Positions 24,748 to 30,082 of a stretch of DNA of 47,576 bases are shown here, in pieces. A program made the translations under genes and the position numbers. The notes under the pieces are model-generated. The model saw only the letters and a program-made list of their open reading frames with translations, ran no database searches and was not told the origin of the DNA. Location of the stretch: assembly GCA_042218115.1 (NCBI GenBank), contig JBDGRJ010000040.1:1-47576 (forward strand), written 5' to 3'. Within the stretch, counting starts at the first letter, position 1, and every line of letters starts with the position of its first letter. The stretch comes from Minisyncoccia bacterium (lineage in GTDB: Bacteria; Patescibacteriota; Patescibacteriia; Magasanikbacterales; UBA922).

Positions 24748-24784
24748 TTTGACCCTCTAAGAAAGACGTAGTACAATACATACA

Positions 24785-24966
24785 CCTGTCCTACAGGAGG
24801 AGAAAACCATGTCCGACACCCAATAAATAGGGGGCTTATATCGGCTTGGCCCGGCGGTTCGTCCGTAGGTCAAGTTCTGCGGCCACCCACTATACCATTC
24901 AGGGACATTAGGTTAATCCCCTGAGGGCAGGTATAAAGCGGCTCGCAGATTGCTGCGAGCTGTTTT
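24785..24966 (+). promoter_or_regulatory. Structured GC-rich leader: 5-codon mini-ORF with a strong SD, alternative antiterminator/terminator helices, terminator at 24941-24966
   Basis: AGGAGG (24795-24800) is followed 8 nt later by ATG TCC GAC ACC CAA TAA (24809-24826). The terminator is GCTCGCAG-ATTG-CTGCGAGC plus TGTTTT. Nucleotides 24876-24884 (TCTGCGGCC) can instead pair with 24940-24949, giving 9 bp with one bulge. The class is not identified. Confidence 0.4.
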
Positions 24967-24997
24967 AAATCAAAATCAAAATTAAAAAAGAATAACA

Positions 24998-25449: not shown

Positions 25450-25478
25450 TTGACAGGGTAAGCAAATATAGCTAATAT
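25450..25478 (+). promoter_or_regulatory. Candidate sigma70 promoter (TTGACA-17 nt-TAATAT) of module 1
   Basis: Hexamers at 25450-25455 and 25473-25478. The leader ORF ATG is about 17 nt from the predicted transcription start site. Confidence 0.5.
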
Positions 25479-25501
25479 ATACTTAAGTTCAAATAAATAT
25501 C

Positions 25502-25609
25502 ATGCATAAGAGCTTCCGCTTTGAAAATTCAATGCTCGTGAGTATTGTGCTTATTATTATCCTCGCCAGCCGAGGCGGAGCTCTTCTAGTACCTGAACGA
25601 GCCAGGTAA
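25502..25609 (+). CDS. Leader peptide ORF 1 (35 aa, Ile/Val/Leu-rich)
   Basis: MHKSFRFENSMLVSIVLIIILASRGGALLVPERAR, translated by hand. 9 of 11 consecutive residues (LVSIVLIIILA) are branched-chain. It overlaps attenuator helices 1 and 2. Confidence 0.45.
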   Translation: MHKSFRFENSMLVSIVLIIILASRGGALLVPERAR

Positions 25610-25632
25610 CACGAACCAAAAAACAAAGAAGA

Positions 25633-25657
25633 GCCCGCCGGAGACGGCGGGCTTTTT
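25633..25657 (+). terminator. Rho-independent terminator (attenuator) of module 1
   Basis: GCCCGCCG-GAGA-CGGCGGGC followed by TTTTT. It lies between the promoter/leader and the ATP-grasp gene. Confidence 0.75.
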
Positions 25658-25873
25658 AAATTTAACAGTCTTTACAAAAGAAACAAAAAATGATAAGTTC
25701 ATATCATTTCTCATCCGGATTAGCTTTTTAAAGGGTTAACCTGGCTGAGAAAGCCATAGCTCTTTAGATCTTTACATATCGGTGTGTAAACCACTCTTGC
25801 CATCCGAGAAGCTGTTTGGCTTTTGGGGTGGCAAGAGTGTGTTAATTGAATTCTCACGGAAGAGGAAAATACG

Positions 25874-27070
25874 ATGAGAGTCTTGATTCATTCGATGATG
25901 ATGTATGTCCACCTCTTGCAGGGGGAGGTGGACGAGCTGAAGAATTATTCGGGGCGCGCCCTGCTCGCCCCGCGGTCTTACGGTGCCGTCGTCTACGACA
26001 CCGAGACTGCTCGCAGGTATGCCAGGTACCTGCGAAATCTTGAGCTTGGGCCGGAGAAGGTTTGGTTCGTGGAGCAGAAGGGCAAGACCCTATTTCACGC
26101 GCTGAACCAATCCGGCACCCTCCAGAAGGTCCTGAAAGCCGCCGACTCGATCGCCCCGTTCGTCTCGTGGGAGAAGACGAACCAATTCCGCGAGGAATGG
26201 GGGCTCGATCATGGTCGGTGGTACGGCCAGGACCGTGAGGACCACGTAAGTCTGGAGAACAAGGCGCAACTTCGCCGACGTTTTCCGGATTCGTGGTTCT
26301 CAGAATACGAGATCTTCCCGGCTGGAGATATCAGCGGAATCCAGGAGTACGGATTTCGCTTGATGGCAAAGTACGGGAAGATCCTAGTCCGGCATCCGAA
26401 GAAGGCATCGGGTGTCGGGCTCCGATTCCTGGAGGACTCGGAGGAGCTCCACTCCTCCAAGCTCATCGAGTTTCTCCAAGGCTTTGCCGGTGAGGAGTTG
26501 CTCGTCGAGCAGTTCTTCTCCGGGGCCGAGGAGTACTCGATAACCTGGGAAAGGGGGCTTGGTGGAGAGCCCCGACAGCTCTACTGGTCGGGACAATTCA
26601 TCAAGTCCGGCGTGCATCAGGGCAACTTGATTGCCTCGCCGGAGACCCTCCTCCCCGAGGAGGCCCAGGGAGCGATCGAGGAGATCGAGGCCGCCACCCG
26701 CGAGATCGTGTCAAACCACGACTCGCCGGGCCGGTACGGTTTTGACCTTCTCATCCGACCCAACGGAGAGTGGGTCGTAATCGAGTGTAACTGCCGATAT
26801 GGGGGGAGCGCCTATCCCGCCTTCGTTCGAGAGAACGTAGGGGAGGATCGTTGTGTCATCATGCACAACGTCTATCCCGAAACGGCGGAGAGCTTCGAGG
26901 AGGTCCACGAAGCCTTCGAGGAGCTCGGGCTCGACTACGACCCCTCGAGCCGAGAGGGTGCGCTCGTTGGCAACCCCTTCGCCCTTCCGGCGAAATGTGC
27001 CGCGGTGATCGTGGCCAATAAGCCGGACGAGGTGAAAGGGATGCTCAAGCGCATCCAAAATAATCTCTAA
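25874..27070 (+). CDS. ATP-grasp superfamily ligase, high-GC paralog (398 aa)
   Basis: ILVRHPKKASGVG (Lys plus Gly-rich loop), LVEQF and the Mg-binding-like ECNCRYGG. It aligns over its full length with the 28150..29337 product. GC is about 57-68% in two lines I counted. Confidence 0.8.
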   Translation: MRVLIHSMMMYVHLLQGEVDELKNYSGRALLAPRSYGAVVYDTETARRYARYLRNLELGPEKVWFVEQKGKTLFHALNQSGTLQKVLKAADSIAPFVSWEKTNQFREEWGLDHGRWYGQDREDHVSLENKAQLRRRFPDSWFSEYEIFPAGDISGIQEYGFRLMAKYGKILVRHPKKASGVGLRFLEDSEELHSSKLIEFLQGFAGEELLVEQFFSGAEEYSITWERGLGGEPRQLYWSGQFIKSGVHQGNLIASPETLLPEEAQGAIEEIEAATREIVSNHDSPGRYGFDLLIRPNGEWVVIECNCRYGGSAYPAFVRENVGEDRCVIMHNVYPETAESFEEVHEAFEELGLDYDPSSREGALVGNPFALPAKCAAVIVANKPDEVKGMLKRIQNNL

Positions 27071-27927: not shown

Positions 27928-27956
27928 CTTGACTACACCTCGTCGCTGTTCTATAA
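27928..27956 (+). promoter_or_regulatory. Candidate sigma70 promoter (TTGACT-17 nt-TATAAT) of module 2
   Basis: Hexamers at 27928-27933 and 27951-27956. The leader ORF ATG is about 15 nt from the predicted transcription start site. Confidence 0.5.
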
Positions 27957-27977
27957 TATTTCTGTAATTATAGCATT

Positions 27978-28064
27978 TATGAATAAATTCAATTTCCTAA
28001 ATAACCAGTTTCTATTTCTGTTTATGATGCCCGCTTGGTCGCGGCGGCGCTCCTGTAATGGCTA
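27978..28064 (+). CDS. Leader peptide ORF 2 (28 aa, Phe/Leu-rich, ends in SRRRSCNG)
   Basis: MNKFNFLNNQFLFLFMMPAWSRRRSCNG, translated by hand, with 5 Phe and 3 Leu in residues 4-15. It shares the M-x-K-(x)-F-x-F-x-N start, a hydrophobic core and an SR motif with leader ORF 1. Confidence 0.45.
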
Positions 28065-28088
28065 GTTGAATTTTTTCAGCCAGTAAAG

Positions 28089-28112
28089 AGCCCGCCGGAG
28101 ACGGCGGGCTTT
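28089..28112 (+). terminator. Rho-independent terminator (attenuator) of module 2
   Basis: The same GCCCGCCG-GAGA-CGGCGGGC hairpin followed by TTTT. It is 37 nt upstream of the ATP-grasp ATG. Confidence 0.75.
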
Positions 28113-28149
28113 TGCTATTAATTTTAGTTACTTAATTATTGCTTACAAC

Positions 28150-29337
28150 ATGAAGACCCACATACATGATTTGAGCTTGTTTGTAACTTTTCTCAAAGGG
28201 TACATTTCCGGGGTAGAGGATTATGTAGCCAGGGCACTCTTATCTCCAGAGGGGGCCGTGGTCTTTGATGATTATGACGTGGATAATTATGTAGAATATC
28301 TGCGAGATATAAATGTAGGTCCCAAGAAAGTTTGGTCGGTAGAGTCTACCGGGGATACTCTATTTCACGCTTTAGATCAAAGTAATCAGCTGGATGAGGT
28401 ACTTGAGCAAAGTGATGTAATAGTGCCGTTCGTATCTTGGGAATATACCAATAAATTTAAAGACAAATGGGGCCTGAAAGACAGTCAGTGGAAGACTCAA
28501 CCCCCCGAAGTTCACCAAAAGCTAGAAAATAAGACTCACTTAAGAGAGATAGGAAAAGAGGAGTGGTTTACAGACTATACTACCTGTAGAGACAAAGAGT
28601 TAGTGGAGGTGGGTCAAGAAATGCTCAGAGAGTACGAGAATATTTTAGTACGTCATCCTAAAAAAGCTAGTGGTGTGGGCGCAGAACAGATAGGAGACCC
28701 GAATTATTTTCAGTCCCAAGACTTTGATCAGTTTGTAGAAGAACATTCTGATGATAACCACTTTTTAGTTGAGGAGTTTTATGAGAAAGGGGAGGAGTTT
28801 AGCATTATCTGGGATGTATCAGCAGAGGGTGAGCCCAAACTTCAATTTTGGACCAGGCAATATATTAATGATTGTGTACATCAGGGTAATATGGTGGCCG
28901 ATGTTGAAGTTGTATTCCCTTGGGAGGCTGAAACAACTATTAGTGAGATAAAAGATGCTACTCGTAGAATAATTGAGGAGTACCCATACTTTGGGCGTAT
29001 AGGTTTTGATTTGAAGGTTTCGCCTTCCGGTGAGTGGAAAATATTGGAGTGTAATTGCAGATACGGTGGGTCTTCTTATCCAGGGTTTACTAGAGAGCAA
29101 GTGGGGGAGGATCGTTGTGTGTTAATGCATAACATTCACCCTAGGCTAGATAATTTTCAGCAGGTACACCAAGCTTTTGTGGAGGCAGATGTAGATTACT
29201 CAAAGGAAGATAGAATAGGCGCTTTTGTAGCCAACCCATTTTGCCTGCCGGACAAGTGTGCTGCTATGATCGTAGCAGAAAACCCCGATGAGGCGGAGCA
29301 GATTCTATCTACTATCTTGGATAAAGTCGATAAATAA
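28150..29337 (+). CDS. ATP-grasp superfamily ligase, low-GC paralog (395 aa)
   Basis: ILVRHPKKASGVG, LVEEF, ECNCRYGGSSYPGF and GEDRCVLMHN. It is collinear with the 25874..27070 product. Confidence 0.8.
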   Translation: MKTHIHDLSLFVTFLKGYISGVEDYVARALLSPEGAVVFDDYDVDNYVEYLRDINVGPKKVWSVESTGDTLFHALDQSNQLDEVLEQSDVIVPFVSWEYTNKFKDKWGLKDSQWKTQPPEVHQKLENKTHLREIGKEEWFTDYTTCRDKELVEVGQEMLREYENILVRHPKKASGVGAEQIGDPNYFQSQDFDQFVEEHSDDNHFLVEEFYEKGEEFSIIWDVSAEGEPKLQFWTRQYINDCVHQGNMVADVEVVFPWEAETTISEIKDATRRIIEEYPYFGRIGFDLKVSPSGEWKILECNCRYGGSSYPGFTREQVGEDRCVLMHNIHPRLDNFQQVHQAFVEADVDYSKEDRIGAFVANPFCLPDKCAAMIVAENPDEAEQILSTILDKVDK

Positions 29338-29344
29338 TTTAACT

Positions 29345-30082
29345 GTGGGCTCGGATATTAATATAACTGTTATACAATACAGAACCGATGAGTCCAGGCT
29401 CCATGAGCAAAGATGTTTTCAAGACCAGTTTTCTAAGCTAGGAGTAGAGTTTGAATTTATAAATGCAATCGAGGAGGATTTGAGCACTGATGTGATAGAG
29501 GATACACACGGGTTAATTTTAGGGGGAAGTACTGAGTTTTCTTTGTCAAAGCTAGATTGGGGTGACCATACTTGGATAGATACAAGTTTTAATATTTTAA
29601 ACGAGTTAACCAACAGGGAGCTTCCTACTTTGGGGATTTGCTTTGGTTATCACTTGATTGCTCTACATCAGGGTGGTAAAATCACCAATGAAGATAAATA
29701 TCACCAAAGTGGATCTTTTCAGTTAAGTCTATCTCAGCATAAGCATAAATGTGATATTTTCTCTAATCTTCCAGAAGAGTTTTACGCTCAGCTAGGACAT
29801 GTAGACACCCCTGTTGATTTGCCCGAAAACGGCTTGTCATTAGCCTCTTCTAATGAAGTACCTCATCAGGCTTTCAAGGTAGAAGATAGGCCCGTATGGG
29901 GGGTGTTATTTCATCCTGAGCTTAACAAACAAAGAGCCAAAGAGAGATTGGCTATGTTTCTCGATTGTGAGGTAGGCAGCGAAGAGTTCAATCAGGAGGT
30001 GAAAAAACTGGAGAGTAGCCCTGAATCCCAACGGGTTATTCACGAATTTATTAAGTTTACTAATAGAAAGTGTCATGAATAA
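29345..30082 (+). CDS. Class I glutamine amidotransferase-like protein, paralog 2
   Basis: LGICFGYHLIA and LFHPELN. I prefer the GTG at 29345 (VGSDINITVIQYRTDE...) because it aligns with the start of paralog 1 and avoids overlap with the ATP-grasp gene. Confidence 0.8.
   Translation: MGSDINITVIQYRTDESRLHEQRCFQDQFSKLGVEFEFINAIEEDLSTDVIEDTHGLILGGSTEFSLSKLDWGDHTWIDTSFNILNELTNRELPTLGICFGYHLIALHQGGKITNEDKYHQSGSFQLSLSQHKHKCDIFSNLPEEFYAQLGHVDTPVDLPENGLSLASSNEVPHQAFKVEDRPVWGVLFHPELNKQRAKERLAMFLDCEVGSEEFNQEVKKLESSPESQRVIHEFIKFTNRKCHE

Follow-up and report, generated by a model that had tools for sequence, protein, structure and literature searches.

A probable leader-peptide attenuator tuned to Phe and Leu upstream of an ATP-grasp ligase gene in a Magasanikbacterales genome

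The window analyzed here is a 47,576-nucleotide (nt) stretch of the genome of an uncultured Minisyncoccia bacterium (Patescibacteriota, Magasanikbacterales; assembly GCA_042218115.1, contig JBDGRJ010000040.1). It contains two neighboring units, module 1 and module 2, in each of which a short leader precedes the genes of an ATP-grasp ligase and a glutamine amidotransferase (GATase). The module-2 leader includes a promoter, a small open reading frame (ORF) rich in Phe and Leu codons, and an intrinsic terminator, the 5' arm of which can alternatively pair with a strand lying inside the ORF. We consider, with a probability of roughly 0.8, that module 2 is governed by a transcription attenuator that works through a translating ribosome, as in the classical leader-peptide systems, and that reports the supply of charged tRNA-Phe and tRNA-Leu. 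The elements of the leader are conserved among its relatives, its alternative helix covaries, and the distance between its stop codon and the terminator is fixed; from these features we infer the stalling of the ribosome at amino-acid limitation and the readthrough that would follow it.

Leader architecture, covariation and geometry

The elements of both leaders and the genes regulated by module 2 are listed in Table 1. The predicted transcript start of module 2 lies near position 27964, which leaves a 5' untranslated region of about 15 nt without a Shine–Dalgarno sequence. This does not argue against translation of the leader ORF, because such a sequence was found in only two of the 33 window genes (long ORFs). 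The Phe and Leu residues of the peptide are F4, F6, L7, F11, L12, F13, L14 and F15, so that the five Phe and three Leu counted in residues 4–15 by the initial annotation, which was made from the sequence alone, are all found in MNKFNFLNNQFLFLFMMPAWSRRRSCNG. The other module-2 features that it described are also present, although its coordinates were one base too low. The strand GGCGGCGCTC (28043–28052) is complementary to GAGCCCGCC (28088–28096) with one bulge. The G–C core of the terminator begins 24 nt past the leader stop codon, and the predicted energies of the two competing structures are -21.2 kcal/mol for the antiterminator and -22.0 kcal/mol for the terminator hairpin. The ATP-grasp gene starts 37 nt 3' of the terminator, and the promoter scan predicted no plus-strand promoter between the leader promoter and the start of this gene at 28150. 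The promoter, the ORF, the terminator and the promoterless gene behind them form one compact unit.

Table 1. Positions of the leader elements and of the regulated genes in the window
Feature	Position	Strand	Remarks
Module-2 promoter, sigma-70-type	27929–27957	+	TTGACT-17-TATAAT, 11/12 consensus positions matched (promoter scan)
Module-2 leader ORF	27979–28065	+	28 codons, stop TAG; predicted peptide MNKFNFLNNQFLFLFMMPAWSRRRSCNG
Putative sensing-codon run, codons 4–15	27988–28023	+	5 Phe and 3 Leu
Region 1, GCCCGCT	28029–28035	+	repeats the 5' arm of the terminator; pairing with GGCGGC (28043–28048) possible
Antiterminator 5' strand, GGCGG-C-GCTC (GGCGGCGCTC)	28043–28052	+	overlaps the Arg codons CGG CGG CGC
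Antiterminator 3' strand, GAGCCCGCC	28088–28096	+	terminator flank and terminator 5' arm
Intrinsic terminator	28086–28113	+	stem 28086–28097 with 28102–28113, GAGA loop, UUUU tail; 12 pairs, 8 of them G–C
Regulated gene 1, ATP-grasp ligase, module-2 clade	28150–29337	+	fold like amino-acid/peptide ligases
Regulated gene 2, class-I glutamine amidotransferase / gamma-glutamyl-peptidase-like	29288–30082	+	Pfam GATase 8.6e-15, Peptidase_C26
Module-1 attenuator, whole	25450–25657	+	paralogous to module 2, same layout
Module-1 promoter	25450–25478	+	
Module-1 leader ORF, Ile/Leu/Val-rich	25502–25609	+	MHKSFRFENSMLVSIVLIIILASRGGALLVPERAR
Module-1 antiterminator strand	25574–25587	+	
Module-1 terminator hairpin core	25631–25653	+	identical to the module-2 core

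The leaders were compared in a sample of 13 taken from the window and related contigs, roughly eight to nine of which are independent. Orthologous leader ORFs are found in the contigs L003/L006, L002, L001, L005/L011, L008 and L004/L009. All 13 leaders keep an ORF of 24–35 codons, a pairing strand GGCGGnGCU... and a GCCCGC...GCGGG(C/T) terminator, and in all 13 a -35 box of the TTGAC type and a -10 box of the TAnnnT type stand at an equivalent position, as judged by eye without scoring. Within the window, the 23-nt hairpin core occurs exactly twice, against zero occurrences expected. The block CG(A/C)GGCGG(A/C)GCTC is common to both window leaders, but it is read as RGGAL in module 1 and as RRRS in module 2; since the frames differ, it is the RNA and not the peptide that is conserved here.

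The helices were examined in a MAFFT alignment of 12 leaders (A4). The antiterminator helix, formed by the pairing strand with the terminator 5' flank and arm, is 89% paired and shows compensatory changes on both sides at six of its 13 pairs. None of 500 shuffles reached the observed covariation score, and pairing falls to 38–52% when the 3' partner is slid by one to three columns. The 5' strand of each leader is calculated to pair with its own 3' flank at a mean energy of -11.6 kcal/mol, compared with -7.0 kcal/mol for the flanks of other leaders (permutation P = 2e-5). The initial annotation had proposed that this strand, its region 2, pairs with a stretch overlapping the terminator 5' arm, and both the covarying pairs and the preference for the cognate flank agree with it. 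The terminator helix is 97% paired across the leaders, with one C–G pair covarying to U–A. Predicted energies range from -19 to -28 kcal/mol for the antiterminator duplexes and from -14 to -22 kcal/mol for the terminator hairpins, and by these calculations the former are as stable as the latter. The small upstream hairpin that involves region 1, conserved in sequence, has the form CTCG..CGAG in most leaders and GCCCGC..GCGGC in module 2.

The spacing of the elements is constrained to different degrees. In each of the 13 leaders the ORF starts 60–75 nt before the pairing strand, and 22–26 nt separate the stop codon from the terminator stem, while 39–59 nt lie between the pairing strand and the terminator and 12–33 nt between the pairing strand and the stop codon. 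Thus, the only distance that is constant downstream of the pairing strand is defined by the reading frame, which is hard to explain unless the terminating ribosome matters.

Amino-acid classes of the leader ORFs

Judging by the substitution pattern and by what the relatives retain, the leader ORF does appear to be conserved as a reading frame. The module-2 leader differs from its L003 orthologue by 4, 3 and 8 substitutions at the first, second and third codon positions, respectively (8 of 15 at the third), and the stop codon is kept; between W_m1 and L006 the corresponding numbers are 8, 4 and 5, which gives no third-position bias. The peptide sequences drift freely. Across the leader orthologues no residues are conserved beyond those encoded by the pairing strand, and the amino-acid class is kept while the nucleotides change. 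The conservation of leader ORFs elsewhere, on which the initial annotation had made its proposal depend, therefore concerns the ORF and its composition, which are kept in the 13 leaders, but not the individual residues. The motif M-x-K-(x)-F-x-F-x-N, which had been described as shared by the two leader peptides of the window, is limited to these two and their closest relatives.

In the seven module-2-type leaders, Phe is 3.5-fold enriched (P = 2e-8) and Leu 2-fold, with Ile and Val depleted. In the module-1-type leaders (five counted), Ile, Val and Leu are each enriched about 2-fold and Phe is not. The contrast of Phe with Ile plus Val between the two classes is significant (Fisher test, P = 8e-8), as would be expected if the modules were tuned to different amino acids; the same had been suggested from the two window peptides, and an Ile/Val-rich homologue of these leaders standing before an ilv operon (see below) points in this direction as well. 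The class of the leader follows the clade of the downstream ATP-grasp protein in a neighbor-joining tree: Ile/Leu/Val-rich leaders precede one clade, and Phe/Leu-rich leaders precede the other. A link between amino-acid bias and ATP-grasp subclade had been put forward as a check, and it is indeed observed.

The three consecutive Arg codons CGG CGG CGC (28042–28050), emphasized in the initial annotation, are present in module 2 and are not conserved in the other leaders, where this position reads RGG, RRC, RRG, RGR or SG. In addition, stalling at these codons would place the ribosome over the antiterminator strand and favor termination. For both reasons, sensing of Arg was rejected, and the Arg codons appear to be a side effect of the G+C richness of the pairing strand.

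These data bear on two other roles that might be ascribed to the ORF. One is that the unit of about 150 nt bracketed by the promoter and the terminator is a non-coding riboswitch or small RNA with a chance reading frame in it, which would be consistent with the fact that its most conserved block is a nucleotide sequence, CGAGGCGGnGCU, and not a peptide. However, a chance frame would hardly be open in 13 of 13 leaders from an ATG (GTG in one) located 60–75 nt before the pairing strand to a stop 22–26 nt before the terminator stem, nor would it keep its amino-acid class despite nucleotide drift or show a third-codon-position bias between the closest pair. There is also no Rfam match and no conserved structure resembling a ligand pocket upstream of the antiterminator, and we regard a non-coding element as scarcely credible. 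The other role is that of a toxin or small hydrophobic membrane peptide that has its own function, the RNA structures being incidental. A polar N-terminus, basic in many cases (about half of the leaders begin with M-x-K), a hydrophobic core and, in most leaders, a subsequent basic stretch give the peptides such an appearance. Nevertheless, the hydrophobic stretch of 8–12 residues is too short for a membrane helix, the basic residues come from the pairing strand and vary with its reading frame, and the codon class, which follows the clade of the downstream enzyme, is retained although the sequence drifts freely. RNA covariation would be left unexplained, and this role is extremely improbable.

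The proposed switch and related leaders

The effect of the ribosome position was modeled with an assumed footprint of the stalled ribosome of about 15 nt upstream and about 14 nt downstream of the first base of the A-site codon. With this footprint, the hydrophobic run extends, in every leader, just as far as the A site can move without the ribosome covering the antiterminator strand, and all eight Phe/Leu codons of the module-2 leader fall within the zone that leaves it free. When the masked module-2 RNA was folded in silico, the antiterminator was predicted for an A site at codons 1–14 and the terminator from codon 15 to the stop. The same switch was obtained for six other leaders (L006_m1, L004_m1, L003_m2, L002_m2, L005_b and L008). 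The selection of antiterminator or terminator by ribosome position, which the initial annotation had envisaged, is supported by the covariation and the fixed spacing of the stop codon and agrees with the masked folding.

The following course of events is proposed. Transcription would begin from the promoter at 27929–27957, and a ribosome would start on the 28-codon leader almost immediately. When Phe and Leu are plentiful, it would reach the TAG stop codon and cover the GGCGGCGCUC strand; its front edge would then lie about 10 nt short of the terminator stem, the GCCCGCC/GGCGGGC hairpin would form, and transcription would terminate at 28110–28113. When Phe-tRNA or Leu-tRNA is scarce, the ribosome would stall in codons 4–15, and GGCGGCGCUC would be free to pair with GAGCCCGCC. 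This pairing would remove the 5' arm of the terminator, and the polymerase would proceed into the ATP-grasp ligase and amidotransferase genes. Module 1 (25450–25657) would use the same RNA design, with Ile/Leu/Val codons replacing the Phe/Leu codons.

Compared with the four-region model of the trp operon, the module-2 leader has the same mutually exclusive antiterminator and terminator, the choice between which would be made by the position of the ribosome on the leader ORF. Unlike the trp leader, it has the 5' strand of the antiterminator inside the ORF and not past its stop codon, its region 1:2 hairpin is short, and its untranslated RNA is predicted to favor the antiterminator. Because the free RNA folds in this way, a simpler design than the trp scheme is conceivable, in which the passage of a translating ribosome through the pairing strand would permit termination. 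The pairing of region 1 with GGCGGC, described in the initial annotation, is present in the minimum-free-energy fold of the module-2 leader, and region 1 may act as an anti-antiterminator or a pause hairpin.

Several observations weigh against the proposed attenuation. The leaders are few and all belong to a single narrow clade, so that the shuffle statistics overstate their independence. Phe and Leu alternate in the leader peptide without a long run of a single residue, and the U-tract of the terminator is just four residues long. The free, untranslated RNA is predicted to fold as the antiterminator and not as the terminator. For L005_x, L001_m2 and largely W_m1, the crude folding model gives the terminator or an unresolved structure at nearly every ribosome position. 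Covariation was sought for the region 1 hairpin across the leaders, and none was seen. The regulated genes are not known genes of Phe/Leu biosynthesis, transport or tRNA charging. Finally, no RNA-seq run covers the region: the only runs found are DNA runs of a metagenome study of a salt lake, of which just one contains the sequence.

A search of Rfam gave no plus-strand match to the leaders at the gathering threshold or at E <= 1, including the Phe_leader family (RF01859). On the minus strand, Phe_leader gave a match below its threshold (26.9 bits, threshold 55), and this overlaps nothing but the terminator hairpin of module 1. A covariance model was built from 11 leaders, the window module-2 leader and its nearest orthologue being excluded. 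It recovers positions 28020–28113 of the window with 53 bits (E = 1e-11), whereas generic terminators score at most 30 bits. The module-1 leader scores 78.7 bits with the model of the leader family. In contig L011, a leader of the same RNA family, the Ile/Val-rich MQQSSRQHNKIVSIIEVVIIKLVTRGGALAMNS (81.9 bits), lies directly upstream of ilvE-ilvC-ilvB-ilvA-ilvD-ridA; of two further copies, a Val-rich one stands before a malic enzyme gene and a Phe/Leu-rich one before a group of GATase, ATP-grasp and GATase genes. Since this model finds the module-2 leader and a leader of its family stands before the ilv operon, the same RNA family apparently also controls a classical branched-chain operon.

The set of genes found behind these leaders differs from contig to contig. 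The ilv operon and the malic enzyme gene of L011 (894–7833 and 8312–9623) are inserted just upstream of its ATP-grasp/GATase modules, and no ilv genes occur at the equivalent position in the window or the other related contigs examined. In L001 (3631–4941), which belongs to a Magasanikbacteria metagenome-assembled genome (MAG), a far more distant ATP-grasp protein (25% identity, hhalign probability 98.6%) is encoded behind the module-1 leader; the content of the cassette has been exchanged behind a conserved leader. In L008, a leader of the Phe/Met/Leu type, MNKYQDYNFMFSLLFMLAGRGGAC (1901–1975), is located between the ATP-grasp gene and the next GATase gene, where the attenuator would gate the GATase alone. 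A third type of leader, the Phe-rich MKKATNRQNFSFFSLFCTE, occurs in L004 (3440–3600) with its own promoter, upstream of a gene for a GCS2-family carboxylate-amine ligase. Its terminator differs (AGCACCGC-TACA-GCGGTGCT), and a strand resembling the antiterminator lies just past the stop codon.

The position of a small ORF directly upstream of an ATP-grasp enzyme, the best fold matches of which are peptide ligases (8ynd, PGM1), also invites the suggestion that the mini-ORF encodes a precursor or substrate peptide modified by this enzyme, as in graspetides or PGM1-type systems, with the hairpin as a leaky terminator that sets the peptide-to-enzyme ratio. A terminator after the precursor gene is common in such clusters. 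Nevertheless, MNKFNFLNNQFLFLFMMPAWSRRRSCNG lacks Asp, Glu and Thr, through which ester or amide cross-links could be formed, only composition is conserved among the peptides, and the nucleotides that are conserved fall into different reading frames in module-1-type and module-2-type leaders. Similar leaders are found before the ilv operon, the malic enzyme gene and a GATase gene without an ATP-grasp gene immediately downstream, and a covarying antiterminator and a fixed spacing between the stop codon and the terminator would be without a role in a precursor gene. The leader peptides were also considered as members of the graspetides; neither a conserved core of Thr/Ser with Asp/Glu (or Lys) nor a conserved leader motif was found in them. 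A precursor is thus very unlikely.

It is somewhat easier to imagine, though still improbable, that the attenuator depends on ribosome stalling triggered not by a shortage of aminoacyl-tRNA but by a drug or metabolite that targets the ribosome or its nascent peptide, as in the ermC, tnaC and ABC-F resistance leaders. These systems have the same architecture, and both the default of the free RNA to the antiterminator and the regulation of genes outside amino-acid biosynthesis would suit them. However, arrest peptides need a specific sequence, whereas the leaders considered here keep only a class-dependent composition, and a sister leader precedes ilvECBAD, a textbook target of amino-acid attenuation.

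Leader-peptide attenuation by charged tRNA, which we prefer, is textbook biology and is normally attached to amino-acid biosynthesis genes. The Escherichia coli pheA and pheST leaders (pheL, pheM; RF01859) have a similar layout, with a short Phe-rich ORF followed by alternative antiterminator and terminator hairpins, and a ribosome stalled at their Phe codons gives readthrough, as is proposed for module 2. In contrast to them, module 2 alternates Phe with Leu instead of having runs of Phe, serves ATP-grasp ligase and amidotransferase genes, and belongs to a host from the Patescibacteria/Candidate Phyla Radiation and not to a gammaproteobacterium; no plus-strand similarity to pheL or pheM exists at the level of sequence or covariance model. 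The leader of ilvGMEDA (ilvL), the peptide of which is MTALLRVISLVVISVVVIIIPPCGAALGRGKA in E. coli, resembles the module-1-type leaders and the L011 ilv leader in its mixed Ile/Val/Leu runs followed by a G+C-rich pairing strand that encodes Gly, Ala and Arg, and the L011 leader likewise has an ilv operon as its target. Unlike ilvL, the window leaders form an independent RNA family, and module 2 has apparently been re-tuned to Phe/Leu and attached to non-biosynthetic genes. For the ilv operons of Corynebacterium and Staphylococcus, too, leader-peptide (upstream ORF) attenuation has been described (PMC10272879, PMC5794164). In the literature searched, no description of leader-peptide attenuation in the Candidate Phyla Radiation was found. 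Thus, the mechanism is known; the novelty lies in the host lineage, in an RNA family outside Rfam, in the re-tuning between amino-acid classes, and in the rare enzyme pair that is regulated. If module 2 functions as proposed, such reduced organisms are shown to monitor the charging of particular tRNAs.

Regulated genes and neighboring elements

The structure model of the ATP-grasp protein (predicted local distance difference test, pLDDT, 86) has its best PDB fold matches with 8ynd, an ATP-grasp peptide ligase of Streptomyces, BesA (8yi6), PGM1 (3wvq) and LdmS (7r8p). BesA is a gamma-glutamyl-amino-acid ligase. Sequence matches to LdmS and carbamoyl-phosphate synthetase are weak. The true start of the amidotransferase gene is probably near 29345. 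Its translation shows the GICFG nucleophile motif and the HPE motif, and the catalytic triad is apparently intact. A GATase-1 paralogue has GuaA subunit A and gamma-glutamyl peptidase 1 as its sequence relatives in the PDB. Downstream of the module-1 leader, a paralogous ATP-grasp gene (46% identical) and a GATase gene are found.

The ATP-grasp family is very rare. An indexed search of 5.8 billion proteins gave 10 members, one of which is assigned by the NCBI annotation to a Candidatus Magasanikbacteria MAG. Among 1.84 billion cluster representatives there was one close match, a single cluster at 50% identity, the next best having an E-value of 1e-49. The window and the sufficiently long contigs have a common gene order: UvrD, Ndk, a small protein, module 1, module 2, rhodanese, PBP, L28, M50, S12, S7 and EF-G. 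A search of metagenome contigs for further related loci returned none, and a search of a genome collection returned only the Magasanikbacteria MAG already known. Scanning metagenome contigs for the pattern CGAGGCGGnGCT...GCCCGC...GCGGG yielded 120 loci, all of them chance matches in DNA with at least 57% G+C.

The composition of a leader is a direct and testable hint at the targets of its ATP-grasp/amidotransferase pair. We suggest tentatively, and with considerable doubt, that the attenuators reveal an unrecognized amino-acid supply system of host-dependent Patescibacteria, in which each ATP-grasp/amidotransferase pair serves one class of hydrophobic amino acids. It is the mode of their regulation that suggests this role. 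One pair would then be responsible for Ile/Val/Leu and the other for Phe/Leu, each being switched on when the matching tRNAs are short of their amino acids; in one relative, a GCS2 ligase follows the Phe-rich leader of the third type. Amide or gamma-glutamyl conjugates might be the form in which the paired enzymes capture or release these amino acids; that they salvage or trap hydrophobic amino acids in this form is a low-confidence guess. If such a system exists, the leader composition would predict the substrate of an enzyme family that is otherwise impossible to annotate.

The module-1 ATP-grasp gene (25874–27070) has 59% G+C and a G+C content at third codon positions (GC3) of 0.76, compared with 41% G+C for the genome. 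Its orthologues in L006 (2925–4121), L004 (5001–6170) and L011 (10001–11215) have 54–60% G+C, and the neighboring genes 31–44%. The gene was not transferred recently, because four-fold sites are only 52–58% identical between the orthologues. For Ile, Leu, Val and Phe, it has a strong preference for codons ending in C, opposite to the habit of the genome, and it is one of only two among 33 genes with a strong Shine–Dalgarno sequence.

A second conserved element is located at about 25760–25873, between the module-1 terminator and the start of this ATP-grasp gene. It contains a long hairpin at about 25795–25843, ACTCTTGCC...GGCAAGAGT, which has no Rfam match. Its inner stem covaries (A–U to C–G, by eye), and a Shine–Dalgarno sequence follows the hairpin. 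The element is kept in L006, L004, L001 and L005, and in L005, where the leader has been relocated to a site before a malic enzyme gene, it remains with the ATP-grasp gene. Between ndk and a gene for a 147-aa protein, at 24749–24975, there is a candidate structured small RNA of about 190 nt with its own promoter, TTGACC-17-TACAAT (24749–24777), and its own terminator. It has no Rfam match; its rod-like fold is kept in L001, L004 and L006, with 10 pairs retained through two-sided changes.

The window sequence occurs in a salt-lake metagenome. The proteins encoded in the window are markedly acidic (Asp 7.3% and Glu 9.3%, Lys 7.2% and Arg 3.8%), and this acidity, together with the near absence of Shine–Dalgarno sequences, fits a salt-adapted organism from a salt-lake source.

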